Origin: an uncultured Candidatus Saccharibacteria bacterium
Lineage (GTDB): Bacteria > Patescibacteriota > Minisyncoccia > Phycocordibacterales > JACNGX01
Length of the DNA stretch: 64,000 bases
Assembly (NCBI GenBank): GCA_964621395.1
Contig: CAZULS010000001.1
Coordinates: forward strand, 245,106 to 309,105
Direction of reading: 5' to 3'
This document shows, in pieces, positions 50,758 through 57,459 of this stretch. The stretch's first letter is position 1; every line of letters begins with the position of its first letter. The notes beneath the pieces were generated by a model. It did no database searches. It saw only the letters and a list, made by a program, of their open reading frames with translations, and was not told the DNA's origin. The position numbers and the translations under genes were made by a program.

Positions 50758-50831
50758 TGCCGGGTCATCTAGTGGTAGGATGCGAGTTTCTGGCACTCGT
50801 CACCGGGGTTCGAATCCCTGCCCGGCAGCCA
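50758..50831 (+). tRNA. tRNA-Gln (CTG)
   Basis: U1:A72 acceptor (tgccggg/cccggca) typical of bacterial tRNA-Gln, anticodon stem cgagt/actcg with loop uuCUGgc, T arm ccggg-gttcgaatcc-ctg, discriminator G, encoded CCA. Track ORF 50616..50837 overlapping it is spurious. Confidence 0.8.
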
Positions 50832-50881: not shown

Positions 50882-51586
50882 ATGACTAAAGAACAACACT
50901 TTCTTCCTGAACACGCACAAGGGCAATTTCATTGCCCACATTGCGGTGTTTATGCAAAACAGCGATGGTCGCACTTAAGTGCAGTGGGTGACGTGCATAC
51001 CACCAAATGGGGTGGCGGCTCTGTTAAGAATGCCTCAAGTATTCTCGGAACTACTCTTACTAACGGCAATCTCACAGATGATTGGTCCCTCTCTGTTTGC
51101 GAGCACTGTAATGGATTATCTATATGGCATAAACGTCGAATGATTTATCCAGAAAAGATTATTGTTGAGGAGCCCAATGCAGATTTGTCGGGAGAGATTC
51201 AAAAGGACTACCTGGAAGCCGCGAATGTACTTGCCAATTCACCACGCTCAGCAGCAGCGATTCTACGGCTTGCTCTCCAAAAACTTTGTAAACAGCTGGG
51301 CGAGAAAGGAGAAAACATAAACGATGATATTGGTGCACTTGTAAAGAAAGGGCTTAATCCTGCGATCCAAAAATCTCTCGATGCGCTTCGTATCACTGGG
51401 AATAACGCTGTTCATCCAGGGGAACTCGACATTACAGAAGAACCAGGGCGGGTCATTAAGCTTTTTGGTCTTCTGAATTTTATTGCAGAAAAAATGATTA
51501 CCGAACCGAAGGAAATTGACTCATTCTACGAAGGATTACCAGATGGTGCGAAACAAGCGGTAGAAAAGCGTGATCAAGACAAATAA
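50882..51586 (+). CDS. Zinc-ribbon + putative HEPN/DUF4145-like protein
   Basis: 234 aa; N-terminal Cys4 (CPHCG...CEHCNG); C-terminal alpha-helical region with AILRLALQKL and LRITGNNAVHPGE (R...GN..H). First gene 3' of tRNA-Gln. Confidence 0.35.
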   Translation: MTKEQHFLPEHAQGQFHCPHCGVYAKQRWSHLSAVGDVHTTKWGGGSVKNASSILGTTLTNGNLTDDWSLSVCEHCNGLSIWHKRRMIYPEKIIVEEPNADLSGEIQKDYLEAANVLANSPRSAAAILRLALQKLCKQLGEKGENINDDIGALVKKGLNPAIQKSLDALRITGNNAVHPGELDITEEPGRVIKLFGLLNFIAEKMITEPKEIDSFYEGLPDGAKQAVEKRDQDK

Positions 51587-51695
51587 CGGATCCCAACTTT
51601 TTACTGGTTTAAAGTAAAAGAAGTAGAGAAAGAAATAATCAAAATGAAACAAAGTCTCATTTTGAGCGAAAAATATATGGCACTAGATTTTTTGT

Positions 51696-52076
51696 ATGAA
51701 AATAAGAAAAGAAAACATATTAATTCGAGCGATAGGGTTTCTACTTTCTCTTGTTTGGTTTGGTATAAGTTTTATCAAAATGTTATTTTCAATGCTTAAG
51801 GAAAAAATACAAAAAAGAAAGAAAATGACACTAGAAGAGACTGATGAGTTTTTAAATAAAGAAATAAAACGTGTCATTAAACATCTCGTCGAATCTTTTG
51901 AAAGAGGCGAAGTGGATGAAGATCAGCTTCTTGGTGAGCGCAGGATCGTCATTGCTATTGTCTTCGACAGGGAAAGATTGCTCCCTGACGGTTTTACCAA
52001 AGAAGAAGCAATGGAAAGATTGACACCTTCGTGGCGTGAGGAAGTGAGGTATCACTACAGGCTTCGCCATAAATAA
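51696..52076 (+). CDS. Small membrane protein (126 aa)
   Basis: N-terminal TM (AIGFLLSLVWFGISFIKMLF), charged C-terminus. Its stop lies 2 nt before the Nudix start. Confidence 0.3.
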   Translation: MKIRKENILIRAIGFLLSLVWFGISFIKMLFSMLKEKIQKRKKMTLEETDEFLNKEIKRVIKHLVESFERGEVDEDQLLGERRIVIAIVFDRERLLPDGFTKEEAMERLTPSWREEVRYHYRLRHK

Positions 52077-52078
52077 CT

Positions 52079-52663
52079 ATGGACATCCAAAAACCAAAAT
52101 CAGCACAGCCAATTCCTGAACACGCCAAGTGTGTGTTTAAGGGCGTGATGTTTGACGTGTATCAATGGGAGCAGGAATTATATAACGGAACAACGACGAC
52201 GTTTGAGAAATTGAAGCGTGCTGATACGGTGATGGTGTATCCAGTACTTCCCGATGGCAAAATTCTTTTAGCCGAACAAGAACAGCCCGGTAAAGAACCC
52301 TTTATAAGTGCTGCGGGTGGTCGTGTTGACGAGGGGGAAGAAGTGTTTGACGCGGCGAAGCGTGAACTTTTGGAGGAGACGGGATATGAGGCAGATGAAT
52401 GGACTCTTTGGAAAGCAGTACAGCCGGGAAGTAAAATTGATTGGGCGGTCTATTCTTTCATTGCTAAGGGACTACGGAAGGTTGCTGATTTGAATCTCGA
52501 TGGTGGCGAGAAGATTACTCCCAAGCCGGTGACATTCGAAGAGTTTCTTGAGATGGGCACGAATGACCGGTTCGGTGAAAAGGAAATTGTTCCCGAACTT
52601 CTCCTGGCGAAAATTGATTCGGAAAAAGAGAGGGAAATAAGAGCATTATTTTCCGCAGATTAA
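52079..52663 (+). CDS. Nudix hydrolase
   Basis: Nudix box GGRVDEGEEVFDAAKRELLEETG (G-x5-E-x7-REUxEExGU). Confidence 0.7.
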   Translation: MDIQKPKSAQPIPEHAKCVFKGVMFDVYQWEQELYNGTTTTFEKLKRADTVMVYPVLPDGKILLAEQEQPGKEPFISAAGGRVDEGEEVFDAAKRELLEETGYEADEWTLWKAVQPGSKIDWAVYSFIAKGLRKVADLNLDGGEKITPKPVTFEEFLEMGTNDRFGEKEIVPELLLAKIDSEKEREIRALFSAD

Positions 52664-52698
52664 GGTCTCACCTTAATCTAATCCTTAATCAAGATTTG

Positions 52699-52740
52699 AA
52701 GCGTATCAAACGCTTGCTTTTATCGTATCACAATGATACG
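52699..52740 (+). promoter_or_regulatory. Two palindromic operator-like sites sharing CGTATCA half-sites
   Basis: aagcgtatcaaacgctt (52699-52717) and cgtatcacaatgatacg (52724-52740), about 100 nt 5' of the AbiEi-like gene. Confidence 0.45.
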
Positions 52741-52838
52741 AAAAATGACCTGAGATGATACGATATTTCTTGCTTTTGAGGGGAAACGGGTTGTTGTTTG
52801 ACACTGTATTTCACATATGATACACTATTGTCATACTT

Positions 52839-53456
52839 ATGAAAAGCAAAGAAAATTTGTTATATCAGTTGAATCTCTTGCCTCATTTTACCAAAGACAC
52901 GGTATATCGTCTTGGAGAGCAGTTGGGGCTTCGGAAAAGCACGGTTGACACATATATCAGCCGGTTTTTGAAGCGCAAGGAAATAATACGATTGAAAAAA
53001 GGATTGTACATATCGTCGGTGTTTTATTCGACACATGTAAGCGATATGTCGTATCTGTTTTGTCTTGCCAATATTCTCCGAACGCCTTCATATGTAAGTT
53101 CATGGACAGCGCTTCAGTATTATAATCTTACAACCGAAGTGATACACCCGATTATATCAACAACGACAAAAGTGACACGGACGCAGGAAACGAAGGTGGG
53201 GACGTTTTCGTATCAGTCAATTCGGAACGATCTTTTTTCAGATTATGTGCGTGTGAACGGGGCATTTGATTTTTTCATTGCGACACCGTCGAAGGCATTG
53301 TTCGATCTCTTGTACTTCAGGACACGGCAATTTCGCGGCGTGAACCGCGGGGATATTGATCGCATAGTTGAAGAACTGCGGATTGATATTGACGAAATAA
53401 ACGATACCGAGCGAAGCAAGTTTTACACGTATATCAAAGAATACATTCATGAGTAA
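52839..53456 (+). CDS. AbiEi-like antitoxin (type IV TA / abortive infection, N-terminal wHTH)
   Basis: 205 aa. 8-nt overlap with the downstream NTase-fold gene. Size and architecture match the AbiEi_4-type partner of AbiEii; family assignment is from motif memory only. Confidence 0.45.
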   Translation: MKSKENLLYQLNLLPHFTKDTVYRLGEQLGLRKSTVDTYISRFLKRKEIIRLKKGLYISSVFYSTHVSDMSYLFCLANILRTPSYVSSWTALQYYNLTTEVIHPIISTTTKVTRTQETKVGTFSYQSIRNDLFSDYVRVNGAFDFFIATPSKALFDLLYFRTRQFRGVNRGDIDRIVEELRIDIDEINDTERSKFYTYIKEYIHE

Positions 53457-54732
53457 TCATATTATTGCCATGCTGAAAAAACGAATCGAGGAGCTTGATA
53501 TGTATGACACACTGGATGCCGAGACTCGTCGCAATGTGCTCAAAGAAGAGCTGCAGTTTTACGTGCTTGATTTCATCTATCATCATCCCGAATATCATAG
53601 ATGGATTATGTACGGCGGTTCCGCATTGCGTATTCTGCACGGATTGAATCGCATGTCGGTGGATTTGGATTTTGAAGTGTCGCGCGCGGTAACGAATGAT
53701 TTTTTGCAGACACTTAAGAATGAGATTGAAACTCACTTCTCACAGACGTACGGGACCGATACTGATTTTCTCACAGCCAAGGTCGTTGGTGGCAGAGGGC
53801 TGAAACTCAAGTTTCATATTGGTGAAATGCTCGGTATTGACCACCCTTCGAAACAGGTTCATGTAAAGATTGACCTCAATCGCTTTGTCGCGCCAAAAAC
53901 GGTGACCGAACGAATACCGGTGTCTCGCAATCAGCTTTCTTTTGTGATTCTGACGTACAATATGTCGGCGCTTATGGCAAGTAAAATCGCCGCCATTGTA
54001 TTGCGCGGTGCACGCATAGTCGGCAAAAACGTGTATGAAGAGAAAGGGAGAGATATATACGACCTTCTGTGGTATATGGAGAAAAAAATTGTACCCGATT
54101 TTGATTATTTGGTTGCCAAAGAGATTGATATTCGCAACCTTCGTGCGCTTTTTGACACGCTGACGCTTCGTATGAACACGGTAAGCACGGAGAATCTCAA
54201 GCAGGATCTTACTCCTTTGTTTGAGCATAAAACATTTATCGATAATTGGATGACGCATTGGCTGGAACAGTATTTTCATCTTCTTGAAGAATATCATATT
54301 CGGACGGTAACCGATGTGAAGCGTATAGGAGTATACCGGGATTTCTCGTCCGATAATTTCTACTTTACGTATACCTATGATACAGAGGAAAAAGATCCGA
54401 TACGAGTGATATACGCGATGAGCGATTATTGGATTGACTTTGCGCCTCATGCACTGCCGAATGATGTTGATGAAAAGATAGCATCACTGATTGGGTTTGG
54501 TGGCAACGGCATGACAAGCCATCCTTCTTCTGAGGAAATGATAAAGAAGTATACAACGTTGTTTTTTAAGAAGACGGAAGAGTATTTTAAGAAAACACAT
54601 AACGTAGTGGTGGGAGATATGCTGGAGACGAAACTGATACGCATGACGGCGGACAATCTCAATCGCAATACAGAGATTGTTCTTACGATGCCGACGCTTT
54701 TGTCATGCGAACTCGATGATTTGTTGAAGTAG
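53449..54732 (+). CDS. AbiEii/AbiGii-family nucleotidyltransferase toxin-like protein (DUF1814-like)
   Basis: 427 aa; N-terminal NTase signature YGGSALRILHGLNRMSVDLDFEV (GG[ST]-x9-R-x-S-x-D-x-D); long C-terminal extension. Confidence 0.55.
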   Translation: MSNHIIAMLKKRIEELDMYDTLDAETRRNVLKEELQFYVLDFIYHHPEYHRWIMYGGSALRILHGLNRMSVDLDFEVSRAVTNDFLQTLKNEIETHFSQTYGTDTDFLTAKVVGGRGLKLKFHIGEMLGIDHPSKQVHVKIDLNRFVAPKTVTERIPVSRNQLSFVILTYNMSALMASKIAAIVLRGARIVGKNVYEEKGRDIYDLLWYMEKKIVPDFDYLVAKEIDIRNLRALFDTLTLRMNTVSTENLKQDLTPLFEHKTFIDNWMTHWLEQYFHLLEEYHIRTVTDVKRIGVYRDFSSDNFYFTYTYDTEEKDPIRVIYAMSDYWIDFAPHALPNDVDEKIASLIGFGGNGMTSHPSSEEMIKKYTTLFFKKTEEYFKKTHNVVVGDMLETKLIRMTADNLNRNTEIVLTMPTLLSCELDDLLK

Positions 54733-54741
54733 TTATCATCT

Positions 54742-56910
54742 ATGAGTACGCTCTCAAAACAGGAACGGATTGATCTTTTTAGAGATTTGTTTCGCGGTCG
54801 GGAGGATGTGTTTGCGCGGCGATGGGAGAAATACGGCGGAGGAGTAAGCGGGTACGCGCCGGTGTACATGGACTGGCGGAAGAAGGAGGCATATGTACCA
54901 CTTTCGGATGCGCACATCGAGCGACATTTGACCGGCAACGCTACGCTCGGCGTGTACGCGCTTATTGAAGACAACACCTCGCGTTTTCTTGTCGTTGATT
55001 TCGACGGTGACGGATGGCGGAGCGACGCGCGGAAGTTTTGTGATGTGTGTGCCCCGCGAGGAGTGCCGGTATATGTGGAGCAGTCGCGGTCGGGGAACGG
55101 CGCGCATGTATGGTGCTTTTTCTCCGAGCCGGTTCAGGCGTATATGAGCCGCGCCGTCTTTTTCCGGCTGCTGCGTGAGGCGCGGCACATTGGTGAGTAT
55201 GAAAGGGATGATAGTTTTGACCGGCTGTTCCCCAATCAGGATTATCTTTCGGGAAAAGGGCTGGGGAATTTGATTGCGCTTCCCTTGCAGGGGAAGTCGC
55301 GCAAGGAAGGAAATACGGTGTTTGTGAATCCCGACGATGATTTTGCCGTGTATCCCGATCAGTGGGAGTTTTTGACGAATGTGAAGCGTGTGTCGCGCGG
55401 CGAGATGGAATTGCTGTACGCGGATGGTGTCGCGGATAGCGAATACGGTTCTGGAAAGGGCGATGCAAGGAGGAAGGGGAGGCGCGCGCAGCTTCGCGGC
55501 GCGCGCAATCCGTCCGCCATTCACATCACGCTCGCGCACGACCTCACGATTCCGAAAAAAGATGTTCCTCCAACAATTGCCGCGTATCTGCGCGACGAGC
55601 TGAATTTTTTCAACGCACAGTACGCGATCAAACAGCGCATGGGATTCAGTCCGCACGGCGTGGAAAAATATATCCGCGCCGTCTACGACGATGACACACA
55701 TGTGCATATTCCGCGCGGGTGGTTATCAAACGTTAAAGAGAAATGCGCCGAAGAAGGGTTGGCGGTCGATATCTCGGATATGCGATCTGACGGCGCGCGT
55801 GTCGCGTACACGCCGAGCATTACGCTTCGTCCGTACCAGAAAAAAGCGGTTGACACACTCACTGCAGAAGGAGGTGGCGTGCTTGTTGCGCCGCCCGGCG
55901 CGGGAAAAACGATTATCGGCATCATGGCTGCGGCGAAACTGAAACGCTCCGTGCTTATTCTTACGCATCGCGCGCAAATCTTTAATCAGTGGATCGACGC
56001 GGCGGAATCTTTCCTGGGTATGCCAAAGAAAGACATCGGTCGGTATTCGGGAGCGGAAAAACGCGAAGGAAAAGGATATGTCACCGTTGCCATGGTGCAG
56101 ACAATCGCGCGGATGTCCGATGAAGATACGCGGGTGCTTCGCGACAGATTCGGCATGGTGATATTGGACGAATGCCATCATGTACCGGCGCGTATGTTTC
56201 GCGATTGTGTCGCGCGTTTCAATCCGCGGTATCTCTACGGGCTCACGGCAACGCCAAAGCGCATGGGCAACGACGAAAAACTCATCACCGCGTATCTCGG
56301 GGATACGGCGCATGTGGTTGAGCCGGCGGACATGTGCGGAAATGCGGAAGGAAAAAGCGGGAACGCACAAACACTCGATATCGCAGTACGCGAGACGAAA
56401 CTATCGCTGCCGTTTTCGCCAAAAGCGACCGACATGCCGACGCTTGGGCGTATTGTCTCTCACGACGCCGAGCGGAACGCGCTAATTTCTGCAGACGTGA
56501 GAAAAGAAGTCGAGAAAGGGAATGCGTGTCTTGTTCTCACCGAGCGGAAAGAGCATGCCGATGTGCTGGCATGGTACTTGAGACGCCACGCGGACACAGC
56601 GCTCTTTACCGGAGACCTTTCGGGACGAAAACGGCGGGATACCGAAGCGCGGATAAAGAAGGGGGATTTCGACGTGATTGTGGCAACTGGACACATGCTC
56701 GGCGAAGGAGCCGATATCCCCGCTCTTTCACGACTCTTTCTCGCGTTCCCGTTTTCATTCGAGGGTAAGCTGATTCAATACCTCGGCCGTGTCGGACGAA
56801 ACGATTTGCCCTCGCGCGTCTACGACTACCGCGACAGCAACATTCCGCTTTTGGAAAAGAAATTCACCGCGCGTCGCAGACGGTACCGAAAAATGACAGA
56901 TGCTATATAA
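54742..56910 (+). CDS. Archaeo-eukaryotic primase (AEP/PrimPol)-like domain fused to SF2 DEXH-box helicase
   Basis: 722 aa. N-terminal AEP motifs: FLVVDFDGDG (motif I, DxD), SGNGAHVWCFF (motif II, sGxGxH), DRLFPNQD (motif III candidate). C-terminal helicase: LRPYQ (Q motif), APPGAGKT (I), ILDECHH (II), GLTATP (III), QYLGRVGR (VI). GC-rich (about 58-60%). Confidence 0.6.
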   Translation: MSTLSKQERIDLFRDLFRGREDVFARRWEKYGGGVSGYAPVYMDWRKKEAYVPLSDAHIERHLTGNATLGVYALIEDNTSRFLVVDFDGDGWRSDARKFCDVCAPRGVPVYVEQSRSGNGAHVWCFFSEPVQAYMSRAVFFRLLREARHIGEYERDDSFDRLFPNQDYLSGKGLGNLIALPLQGKSRKEGNTVFVNPDDDFAVYPDQWEFLTNVKRVSRGEMELLYADGVADSEYGSGKGDARRKGRRAQLRGARNPSAIHITLAHDLTIPKKDVPPTIAAYLRDELNFFNAQYAIKQRMGFSPHGVEKYIRAVYDDDTHVHIPRGWLSNVKEKCAEEGLAVDISDMRSDGARVAYTPSITLRPYQKKAVDTLTAEGGGVLVAPPGAGKTIIGIMAAAKLKRSVLILTHRAQIFNQWIDAAESFLGMPKKDIGRYSGAEKREGKGYVTVAMVQTIARMSDEDTRVLRDRFGMVILDECHHVPARMFRDCVARFNPRYLYGLTATPKRMGNDEKLITAYLGDTAHVVEPADMCGNAEGKSGNAQTLDIAVRETKLSLPFSPKATDMPTLGRIVSHDAERNALISADVRKEVEKGNACLVLTERKEHADVLAWYLRRHADTALFTGDLSGRKRRDTEARIKKGDFDVIVATGHMLGEGADIPALSRLFLAFPFSFEGKLIQYLGRVGRNDLPSRVYDYRDSNIPLLEKKFTARRRRYRKMTDAI

Positions 56911-56919
56911 TGGACATGT

Positions 56920-57459
56920 ATGATTGCGTTTGAAACACATGCGGGGAAGGAGATTAATCTTGATGCCGTGGAAGCGGTGATGCTCGGGAAACATGCCGAG
57001 CCGCGCTTTTTGGACGTGGTGACGGGGCGGGTTGAGAGTGAGCCGAGTGTGACGCGCATGGAGATTCCGGTGATATCCAAGGAGCGATTTGAAAAAGAAA
57101 TGCGGTCGTTTATTGATATGATGGCGGTATGGGAGAATGATGAATCCGATGCGTGTATAATTGAGAAACTAACAGCGCTTCTTTCAGGAAAAGAGGTGTA
57201 TGATAAGGCGATGCAGATACTTCAAACGGACGAAGCATGGATGATTGGCTGGCGCGAATGGATTTCCACAAGCGTGTGGGAAGAAATGCGCGCGTGGCTG
57301 CTTTCCGCCGATAACGGTATCGTTGAGGTTGCAACATTCAATTGCTCATGCGCGCTCTGTCACGACATGGCGCAAGGCATGAAAGGCAATGAACGTATTC
57401 GTGTGGATTGGAATTTGGATAATATGAATGAGGATGGAAATGATAAGCTAGAAAAATGA
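56920..57459 (+). CDS. Hypothetical protein (179 aa) coupled to the AEP-helicase gene
   Basis: Starts 10 nt after the helicase stop; same GC-rich composition. Acidic, with a Cys cluster CSCALCH near the C-terminus. No known family recognised. Confidence 0.35.
   Translation: MIAFETHAGKEINLDAVEAVMLGKHAEPRFLDVVTGRVESEPSVTRMEIPVISKERFEKEMRSFIDMMAVWENDESDACIIEKLTALLSGKEVYDKAMQILQTDEAWMIGWREWISTSVWEEMRAWLLSADNGIVEVATFNCSCALCHDMAQGMKGNERIRVDWNLDNMNEDGNDKLEK

Follow-up and report, generated by a model that had tools for sequence, protein, structure and literature searches.

How are two overlapping genes on a Saccharibacteria contig to be classified, and which of the palindromes in front of them controls their expression? 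The genes lie in a 64,000-nucleotide stretch of contig CAZULS010000001.1, from an uncultured Candidatus Saccharibacteria bacterium, and this whole stretch is called the window below. An earlier note had described them as a type IV toxin-antitoxin (TA) pair of the AbiEi/AbiEii kind, with an unusually long toxin and with twin palindromic operators about 100 nucleotides (nt) upstream. We consider it likely that positions 52798-54732 form a self-contained AbiE cassette, representing a subfamily found mostly in Patescibacteria, and that the half-sites further upstream are the leftover promoter/operator of a Fic gene.

The gene pair and its family

The two open reading frames (ORFs) lie on the forward strand exactly where they had been reported. 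They encode proteins of 205 amino acids (aa; 52839-53456) and 427 aa (53449-54732), and overlap by 8 nt (ATGAGTAA). Profile searches support the assignment of the pair to AbiEi and AbiEii. The PADLOC AbiEi profile matches the 205-aa protein over almost its full length (residues 13-202, 2e-34), the PADLOC AbiEii profile covers residues 15-277 of the 427-aa protein (1e-31), and the Pfam AbiEii model PF08843 matches residues 45-242 of the latter with 77.4 bits (E 2.1e-21; curated cut-off 22.5 bits). None of the NCBIfam models matched the toxin. For the antitoxin, Pfam AbiEi_4 aligns with residues 38-58 only and reaches 19.3 bits against a cut-off of 25, and the NCBIfam model TAA_AbiEi scores far under its cut-off. 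Because both matches fall under their thresholds, the 205-aa protein is classified from its sequence as a divergent AbiEi. By every feature testable in silico, the pair is a genuine AbiE-type toxin-antitoxin (abortive-infection) system.

The toxin belongs to a coherent family. Relatives were collected by scanning one genome per species in a collection that covers 185,579 species genomes, which yielded 288 stretches; 80 loci fetched among these served for the neighbourhood counts. In addition, 1714 matches were obtained among 5.8 billion protein clusters, and almost all of the best 120 are exactly 427 aa long and 61-66% identical to the window toxin. The family members carry the database label of AbiEii/AbiGii family proteins, and the named ones come mostly from metagenome-assembled genomes (MAGs) of Patescibacteria, including the Giovannoni-, Berkel-, Kerfeld- and Zambryskibacteria lineages. 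We found no description of the long (427-aa) AbiEii variant in the literature.

The comparison of loci defines what travels together. An AbiEi homologue stands immediately upstream of the toxin gene in 79 of the 80 loci, and homologues of the window neighbours (AEP-TOTE helicase, PD-T7-4, NUDIX and orf179) occur in none of them. The flanking genes are highly diverse. Their commonest family, a large serine recombinase, is present in six loci, and adenine methyltransferases, DUF262-like, GIY-YIG and Fic genes also recur, a content that would fit residence in mobile or defence regions. The guanine-plus-cytosine (GC) content of the cassette is 39-46%, against 47-57% for its neighbours. Conservation between loci spans the DNA from position -41, relative to the abiEi start codon, to the toxin stop codon and ends there. 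Since it starts at the -35 hexamer and ends at this stop codon, the conserved, mobile unit is delimited by comparison as the promoter plus the two genes (window 52798-54732). As judged from these comparisons, the cassette is an accessory, horizontally moving two-gene module and not a housekeeping enzyme. The features of the locus are compiled in Table 1.

Table 1. Coordinates of the cassette, its putative control elements and the upstream array in the window.
Feature	Position	Strand	Description and basis
abiEi	52839-53456	+	205-aa antitoxin, presumed autorepressor; N-terminal winged helix and AbiEi-type C-terminal domain
abiEii, N-terminal part (residues 1-282)	53449-54294	+	DUF1814 nucleotidyltransferase core
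abiEii, C-terminal extension (residues 283-427 and stop codon)	54295-54732	+	Family-specific alpha+beta domain
-35 hexamer TTGACA	52798-52803	+	Left edge of the conserved AbiE cassette; promoter scan and information content
Extended -10 element TGATACACT (TG, one base, TACACT at 52821-52826)	52818-52826	+	Promoter scan and conservation
Candidate AbiEi operator on the core promoter	52808-52835	+	Conservation and palindromes of distant members; binding putative
Orphan winged-helix-Fic-type promoter/operator	52699-52765	+	Outside the conserved AbiE cassette; half-site arrangement and consensus match
Exact half-sites CGTATCA	52702-52708, 52724-52730	+	
Exact half-sites TGATACG	52734-52740, 52756-52762	+	
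-35-like element of the array, TTGCTT	52714-52719	+	
-10-like element of the array, TACGAA	52737-52742	+	

The toxin core and its C-terminal extension

The toxin was modelled with AlphaFold2 from a diverse alignment, giving a model with a predicted local distance difference test (pLDDT) value of 88.9 and a predicted template modelling (pTM) score of 0.85, which replaced a shallow-alignment model (pLDDT 61). The N-terminal part of the protein has the DUF1814/pol-beta-like nucleotidyltransferase (NTase) fold, in agreement with the NTase signature previously recognised there; the quoted string, GGSALRILHGLNRMSVDLDF, corresponds to residues 56-75. The core motifs are G56-G57, R68-x-S70-x-D72-x-D74, K179-x6-R186 and R201-D202-x-x-D205. 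Among these residues, G56, G57, R68, S70, D72, D74, K179, R186, D202 and D205 are invariant in an alignment reaching down to 30% identity. Particularly, S70 (codon at 53656-53658), which is invariant in 23 sequences over this range, forms the phospho-acceptor pattern S70-V-D72-L-D74, with the serine two residues ahead of the first catalytic aspartate.

These motifs closely follow those of the characterised Streptococcus agalactiae AbiEii, in which motifs I-IV read hG[G/S]..DhD with an Arg, K..R, and +DxxD, and in which each mutation of G49, R63, D67, D69, K173, R180 and D192 abolishes toxicity (PMC3985639). T65 of the same protein is the phospho-acceptor (bioRxiv 10.64898/2026.01.19.700257). 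All eight residues, T65 included, have equivalents in the window toxin, and the spacing of the R-x-S-x-D-x-D motif is identical. The S-x-D-x-D pattern is also shared with Mycobacterium tuberculosis MenT3 (Rv1045/TglT), as S78/D80/D82, and the S78A and D82A variants of MenT3 appear in PDB titles. The overall identity to MenT3 and MenT4 (Rv2826c) is only 10-16%, and the MenT proteins, of about 290 aa, lack the C-terminal domain described below. When compared with PDB sequences, the toxin family profile matched nothing at E <= 1, and a more diverse profile matched only JHP933, at motif I.

The toxin had been estimated to exceed the typical length by about 130 aa, which agrees with the 147-310 positions of the PADLOC AbiEii profiles and the 288-292 aa of MenT3 and MenT4. 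Compared with the AbiEii proteins of S. agalactiae and Lactococcus lactis (about 300 aa), the additional length is accounted for by an extra C-terminal domain of 145 aa. In the AlphaFold2 model, this extension is composed of three long antiparallel strands, a long helix (362-382), a hairpin and short terminal helices, with pLDDT values mostly of 88-95. Its conserved residues are Y368, F372, K375, K382, T394, K395, R398, T400 and D402.

The extension was also searched on its own. A phmmer search of 1.84 billion representative proteins returned only 57 matches. All full-length ones bear the extension at the C-terminus (approximately residues 270-420) of proteins mostly of 418-437 aa, with one of 487 aa, and the two short matches that were checked are fragments at contig ends. 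No significant match was obtained for the extension alone in Pfam or among PDB sequences, and structural comparison by Foldseek with PDB and BFVD entries revealed no more than weak resemblances of a gelsolin-like or gp25/IraD-like kind. The earlier note had proposed that the additional C-terminal part might be an effector or sensor domain. That it folds as a separate domain is supported by the model; the results speak neither for nor against the effector or sensor role.

Core promoter, candidate operator and upstream array

The upstream DNA was aligned for 66 sequences including the window, and the information content was computed over 52 distinct promoters. It amounts to 0.1 bits or less upstream and rises to 1.3-1.75 bits exactly at the -35 hexamer (position -41). 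From there, conservation remains high up to the ATG, whereas 5' of the hexamer it is nil. The promoter scan identifies TTGACA-17-TACACT with an upstream TG (10/12 matches), and the near-invariant segment of about 44 nt reads TTGACA, 4 nt, (A/G)TTTCA(C/G)AT(A/C)TGATACACTAnTGTCATA, 2-3 nt, ATG. Within this segment, 57 of 65 related loci have TGATAC at -21 or -20 from the ATG. The abiEi ATG begins 12 nt past the -10 hexamer. Because of this short distance, the leader of the messenger RNA (mRNA) would be only about 5-7 nt long, leaving no room for a Shine-Dalgarno sequence. When the core promoter was used as a position matrix, upstream copies were found only in the window and a few other loci.

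Two elements make up the candidate AbiEi operator, ATTTCA (52808-52813) and an imperfect dyad at 52816-52835, TATGATACA-ctat-TGTCATA. The dyad extends over the -10 hexamer and over the point at which transcription is predicted to start, about 52832-52834. Three parts are conserved beyond the needs of a promoter, namely TTTCA in the spacer, the C at the third position of the -10 hexamer (91% of loci) and TGTCATA after it. Moreover, distant members of the family possess palindromes at the same place. In two loci whose toxins are 43% identical to the window toxin (L203 and L204), a palindrome with 17-nt arms brackets the -10 hexamer, and in a third (L205, 31% identical) the palindrome TATAATACA-aaag-TGTATTATA lies on the -10 hexamer and the start site. 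AbiEi proteins bind inverted repeats in their own promoter (PMC7319586). Given the near-invariant positions and the palindromes of the distant members, the operator of the family most likely lies within the core promoter, where S. agalactiae and M. tuberculosis also have theirs, and the dyad is its likely site in the window. Four other loci (L002, L016, L017 and L020) have a different palindrome, CTATATCA-N6-TGATATAGTAATTT, just 5' of the -35 hexamer, at about -77 to -50 before the abiEi ATG. It may serve as an additional operator, or may have been left behind by the promoter of some other gene.

The half-sites that had attracted attention lie upstream of this region, at -137 to -77 from the abiEi ATG and outside the conserved unit. 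Both inverted repeats reported earlier exist. Palindrome 1, AAGCGT-atcaa-ACGCTT (52699-52715), is built on a stem of only 6 bp and was in addition marked as terminator-like, and palindrome 2, CGTATCA-caa-TGATACG (52724-52740), extends to 12-nt arms with 92% complementarity. The description was incomplete in that the fourth half-site, the downstream copy of TGATACG, had been overlooked. In full, the array is formed by four exact 7-mers in the orientation > > < <, whose starts are spaced 22/10/22 around a dyad at 52732, and a fifth related site, TGATACA (52818-52824), lies inside the AbiE promoter. In the window, the CGTATCA 7-mer occurs 16 times, against 6.8 +/- 3.0 expected, and none of 100 shuffles reaches 16. 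The probability of four copies in 61 nt is estimated as about 1e-10 per 61-nt stretch, and as <1e-3 after correction for all stretches and 7-mers. The clustering of the half-sites is not due to chance.

A likely origin of the array emerges from loci elsewhere. Within the AbiE family, none of the other 65 upstream regions contains it, and the window provides the only instance of it in front of AbiEi. A metagenome scan, in which three of the four half-sites and their spacings formed the query, gave at least 120 loci. Among the matches listed, none of 120 loci encodes AbiEi or AbiEii, and about 20 have a winged-helix Fic gene directly downstream, whose product of about 350 aa combines an N-terminal winged helix with a Fic domain (PF02661). 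The consensus of 16 distinct Fic loci reads cTTG, 7 nt, ATCGTATCA, 3 nt, TGATACGATtA, about 11 nt, ATGATACGA, with the Fic start within 2-10 nt. Window positions 52680-52770 agree with this consensus, without a shift in register, at 31 of the 35 positions conserved to 80% or more, the -35-like CTTG included.

The architecture of the Fic-gene array, as seen in L191, L172, L144 and L007, is thereby found in the window as well: a -35-like CTTG, then ATCGTATCA-N3-TGATACGA and, some 22 nt further downstream, a second ATGATACGA. The outer-left GTATCA of the window is likewise present in L191, L173 and L174. Two differences were observed. The 350-aa Fic gene starts 2-10 nt past the last site in the Fic loci, whereas the AbiE cassette of the window starts 36 nt later, and the -10-like TACGAT of the Fic array is degraded to TACGAA in the window. 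The window yielded no Fic homologue (E <= 1e-5), nor did the surroundings of the array yield a remnant of one (E <= 50), and for this reason the array is called an orphan. In the simplest reading, it is the orphaned promoter/operator of a Fic gene, beside which the AbiE cassette landed or whose gene the cassette replaced. The hairpin of palindrome 1 may be incidental, since related arrays elsewhere do not share its stem.

Further observations were made on the Fic family itself, which includes L191 (6588-7705), L172 (5935-7050), L144, L182, L118, L197, L129, L007 and others. Its promoter/operator is strongly conserved, ATCGTATCA-N3-TGATACGAT being followed by a second ATGATACGA directly in front of the start codon, and the array together with the winged-helix Fic gene probably constitutes an autoregulated module. 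In L172, the gene order is array, Fic, DUF3800 and AEP-TOTE helicase, with Fic roughly at the place that AbiE occupies in the window. As a single example, this arrangement is no more than suggestive. Upstream of the window array, within 52657-52690, a perfect 10-bp hairpin (AGATTAAGGT / ACCTTAATCT) spans the stop codon of the NUDIX gene, followed by CCTTAATC, repeated at 52671 and 52683.

Alternative readings, neighbouring genes and proposed mechanism

The earlier note had assigned the upstream palindromes to AbiEi, which would autoregulate through the half-sites at 52699-52762. Several similarities favour such a model. ATGATAC is common to the half-sites and the core of the family promoter, 11 of the 13 positions of the site at 52755-52767 (ATGATACGATATT) agree with the core (ATGATACACTATT), and M. 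tuberculosis Rv2827c uses four repeats over -1 to -131 (PMC7319586). TATCA-N2-8-TGATA palindromes are also about 13-fold enriched upstream of the family promoters (window, L002, L017, L020 and L043), but this enrichment was judged against a mostly coding background and L017 and L020 are related. The comparative evidence nevertheless does not support the assignment: the sites fall outside the conserved unit, occur in none of the other 65 upstream regions and match the Fic promoter/operator in register, -35 included, and of the 120 metagenomic array loci listed, about 20 encode Fic immediately downstream and none encodes AbiE. We accordingly regard control of AbiEi through the upstream sites as improbable, and favour the dyad on the core promoter together with an orphaned Fic array.

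Two other alternatives concern the toxin. The 427-aa protein might be a non-toxic housekeeping nucleotidyltransferase, and the pair no TA system at all; its 60-66% identity across many lineages could in principle mean a core function, and the toxicity of the subfamily is a prediction. Relatives are nevertheless confined to just 288 stretches of so large a collection, their neighbourhoods are completely variable, and the GC content of the cassette is unlike that of its flanks. In addition, the gene is accompanied by its AbiEi partner and its own promoter, and all AbiEii residues essential for toxicity are kept, so that we give the housekeeping reading hardly any credence. The second alternative accepts the toxin and takes its C-terminal 145 aa as an additional effector or trigger-sensing domain, making the protein a sensor-toxin fusion. 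The discrete and confidently folded structure of the extension, its strictly conserved length and position across the family, the conserved polar residues K375, K395, R398, T400 and D402 and the lack of an equivalent in characterised AbiEii or MenT proteins all agree with this possibility. Against it, the extension shows no catalytic-looking motif and matches no known enzyme or sensor family in the Pfam and PDB searches, and among its 57 matches it occurs neither alone nor in other fusions, which rather suits an accessory binding module. We regard the fusion as rather unlikely. We weakly favour an accessory docking module over a second catalytic activity, and the extension may dock a substrate or partner through the conserved patch of K375, K382, K395, R398, T394, T400 and D402. 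Unlikely, too, is a combined version, in which the extension is a new trigger-sensing or target-selecting module and the orphan operator possibly adds control by a winged-helix Fic regulator encoded elsewhere. If true, it would make the cassette a mechanistically distinct AbiE variant, and the control by a Fic regulator would wire two toxin modules together.

Some points weigh against the self-contained AbiE cassette with a leftover Fic array. The AbiEi assignment depends on the PADLOC profiles, the Pfam and NCBIfam matches being sub-threshold, and neither the AbiEi family profile nor the single sequence matched a solved AbiEi among PDB sequences. The toxicity, antitoxicity, DNA binding, substrate and phage defence of the subfamily are predictions only. 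The net charge of the extension is near neutral, which does not particularly favour RNA binding. Regarding the operator, the dyad of the main family is imperfect, promoter and start-site context might by themselves account for much of the conserved 44 nt, and a covariation check by eye of one arm pair (-22/-5) in the 66-sequence listing showed no compensating change. The Fic-type array and the AbiE core promoter have ATGATAC in common, so that AbiEi might also recognise the array, and the association with Fic comes from a sample of metagenomic loci, not a census.

The surroundings of the cassette were also inspected. A 722-aa fusion of an AEP-TOTE primase and a superfamily 2 (SF2) helicase (54742-57459) begins 10 nt after the AbiEii stop codon; it matches PF22548 at 2e-75, as well as ResIII and Helicase_C, and has a GC content of 55-57%. 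An unannotated 179-aa ORF with C-terminal Cys/His residues lies 3' of it. On the other side, a transfer RNA (tRNA) gene, tRNA-Gln (50758-50831), is directly followed by a DUF4145 gene (50882-51586), which matches the PADLOC defence candidate PD-T7-4 at 5e-82. Neither the AEP-TOTE helicase nor PD-T7-4 was retained as a third component of the system, as neighbours of this kind occur in 0/80 loci. Together with the GC mosaic over 51000-57000, the tRNA-Gln/PD-T7-4 region has the appearance of a small defence island adjoining a tRNA gene. Att-like repeats of the tRNA-Gln 3' end were looked for and not found, the longest match being 12 nt, and the Rfam scan detected tRNAs only. In L203 (1700-1770) and L046, the DNA just 5' of the cassette promoter resembles the 3' end of a tRNA gene (GGTTCGAGTCC...), which suggests, from at least two loci, that the cassettes often sit beside tRNA genes. 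Six loci (L016, L017, L023, L038, L058 and L071) contain a small ORF a few nt after the toxin stop codon, within the first ~100 nt, which is absent from the window. Its product begins MSQEIANKTKK..., has a CxxC motif (KCKKCGDEIF) and is zinc-ribbon-like, which makes it a possible third component in the sub-lineage concerned.

Compared with the AbiE systems of S. agalactiae and L. lactis (COG5340 plus DUF1814), the cassette shares the antitoxin-first bicistronic operon with overlapping genes and the winged-helix antitoxin with an AbiEi-type C-terminal domain, and with S. agalactiae also the dyad symmetry on the promoter. It differs in an antitoxin recognised by PADLOC profiles only, and in the ATG following the -10 hexamer by 12 nt, against a leader of 26 nt in S. 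agalactiae (PMC3985639). With a length of about 20-28 bp, the candidate operator overlies the -10 hexamer and start site, whereas AbiE has two 23-bp repeats 3 bp apart (PMC7319586), and the hosts of the window family are mostly Patescibacteria MAGs. As far as can be read from sequence, the cassette departs from characterised AbiE in three ways, namely an additional domain at the C-terminus of the toxin, a predicted leader of very few nucleotides and the host range.

In the mechanism we propose, a sigma-70-like promoter (TTGACA, 17 nt, TG-n-TACACT) would drive a bicistronic abiEi-abiEii mRNA, and the gene overlap suggests translational coupling. AbiEi probably represses the operon through the conserved dyad over the -10 hexamer and the transcription start. 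By homology, it probably also neutralises the toxin by direct binding, leading to auto-phosphorylation of S70. Free AbiEii most likely nucleotidylates the 3' ends of tRNAs and thereby arrests translation, by analogy with S. agalactiae AbiEii and with the MenT toxins, for which tRNA 3'-end nucleotidylation is described in the literature. The earlier label of type IV is now contested. A 2026 preprint moved S. agalactiae AbiE from type IV to type VII, with antitoxin-induced auto-phosphorylation of the toxin, and a type VII neutralisation through S70 may apply to the window pair as well. MenT4, however, is not phosphorylated and is not bound by its antitoxin, and the mode of neutralisation is therefore not automatically transferable.

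AbiE has been described as among the most abundant anti-phage systems, and its mechanism is under revision, with type VII taking the place of type IV and with tRNA nucleotidylation as the toxin activity. As a natural variant, the subfamily lends itself to studies of substrate choice or infection sensing by DUF1814 toxins. The promoter with its two genes is a well-defined minimal cassette for expression studies of unculturable organisms. Our analysis also highlights that conspicuous palindromes beside a regulator gene may belong elsewhere, as those in front of this AbiE cassette were reassigned to a Fic family by the comparison of loci.

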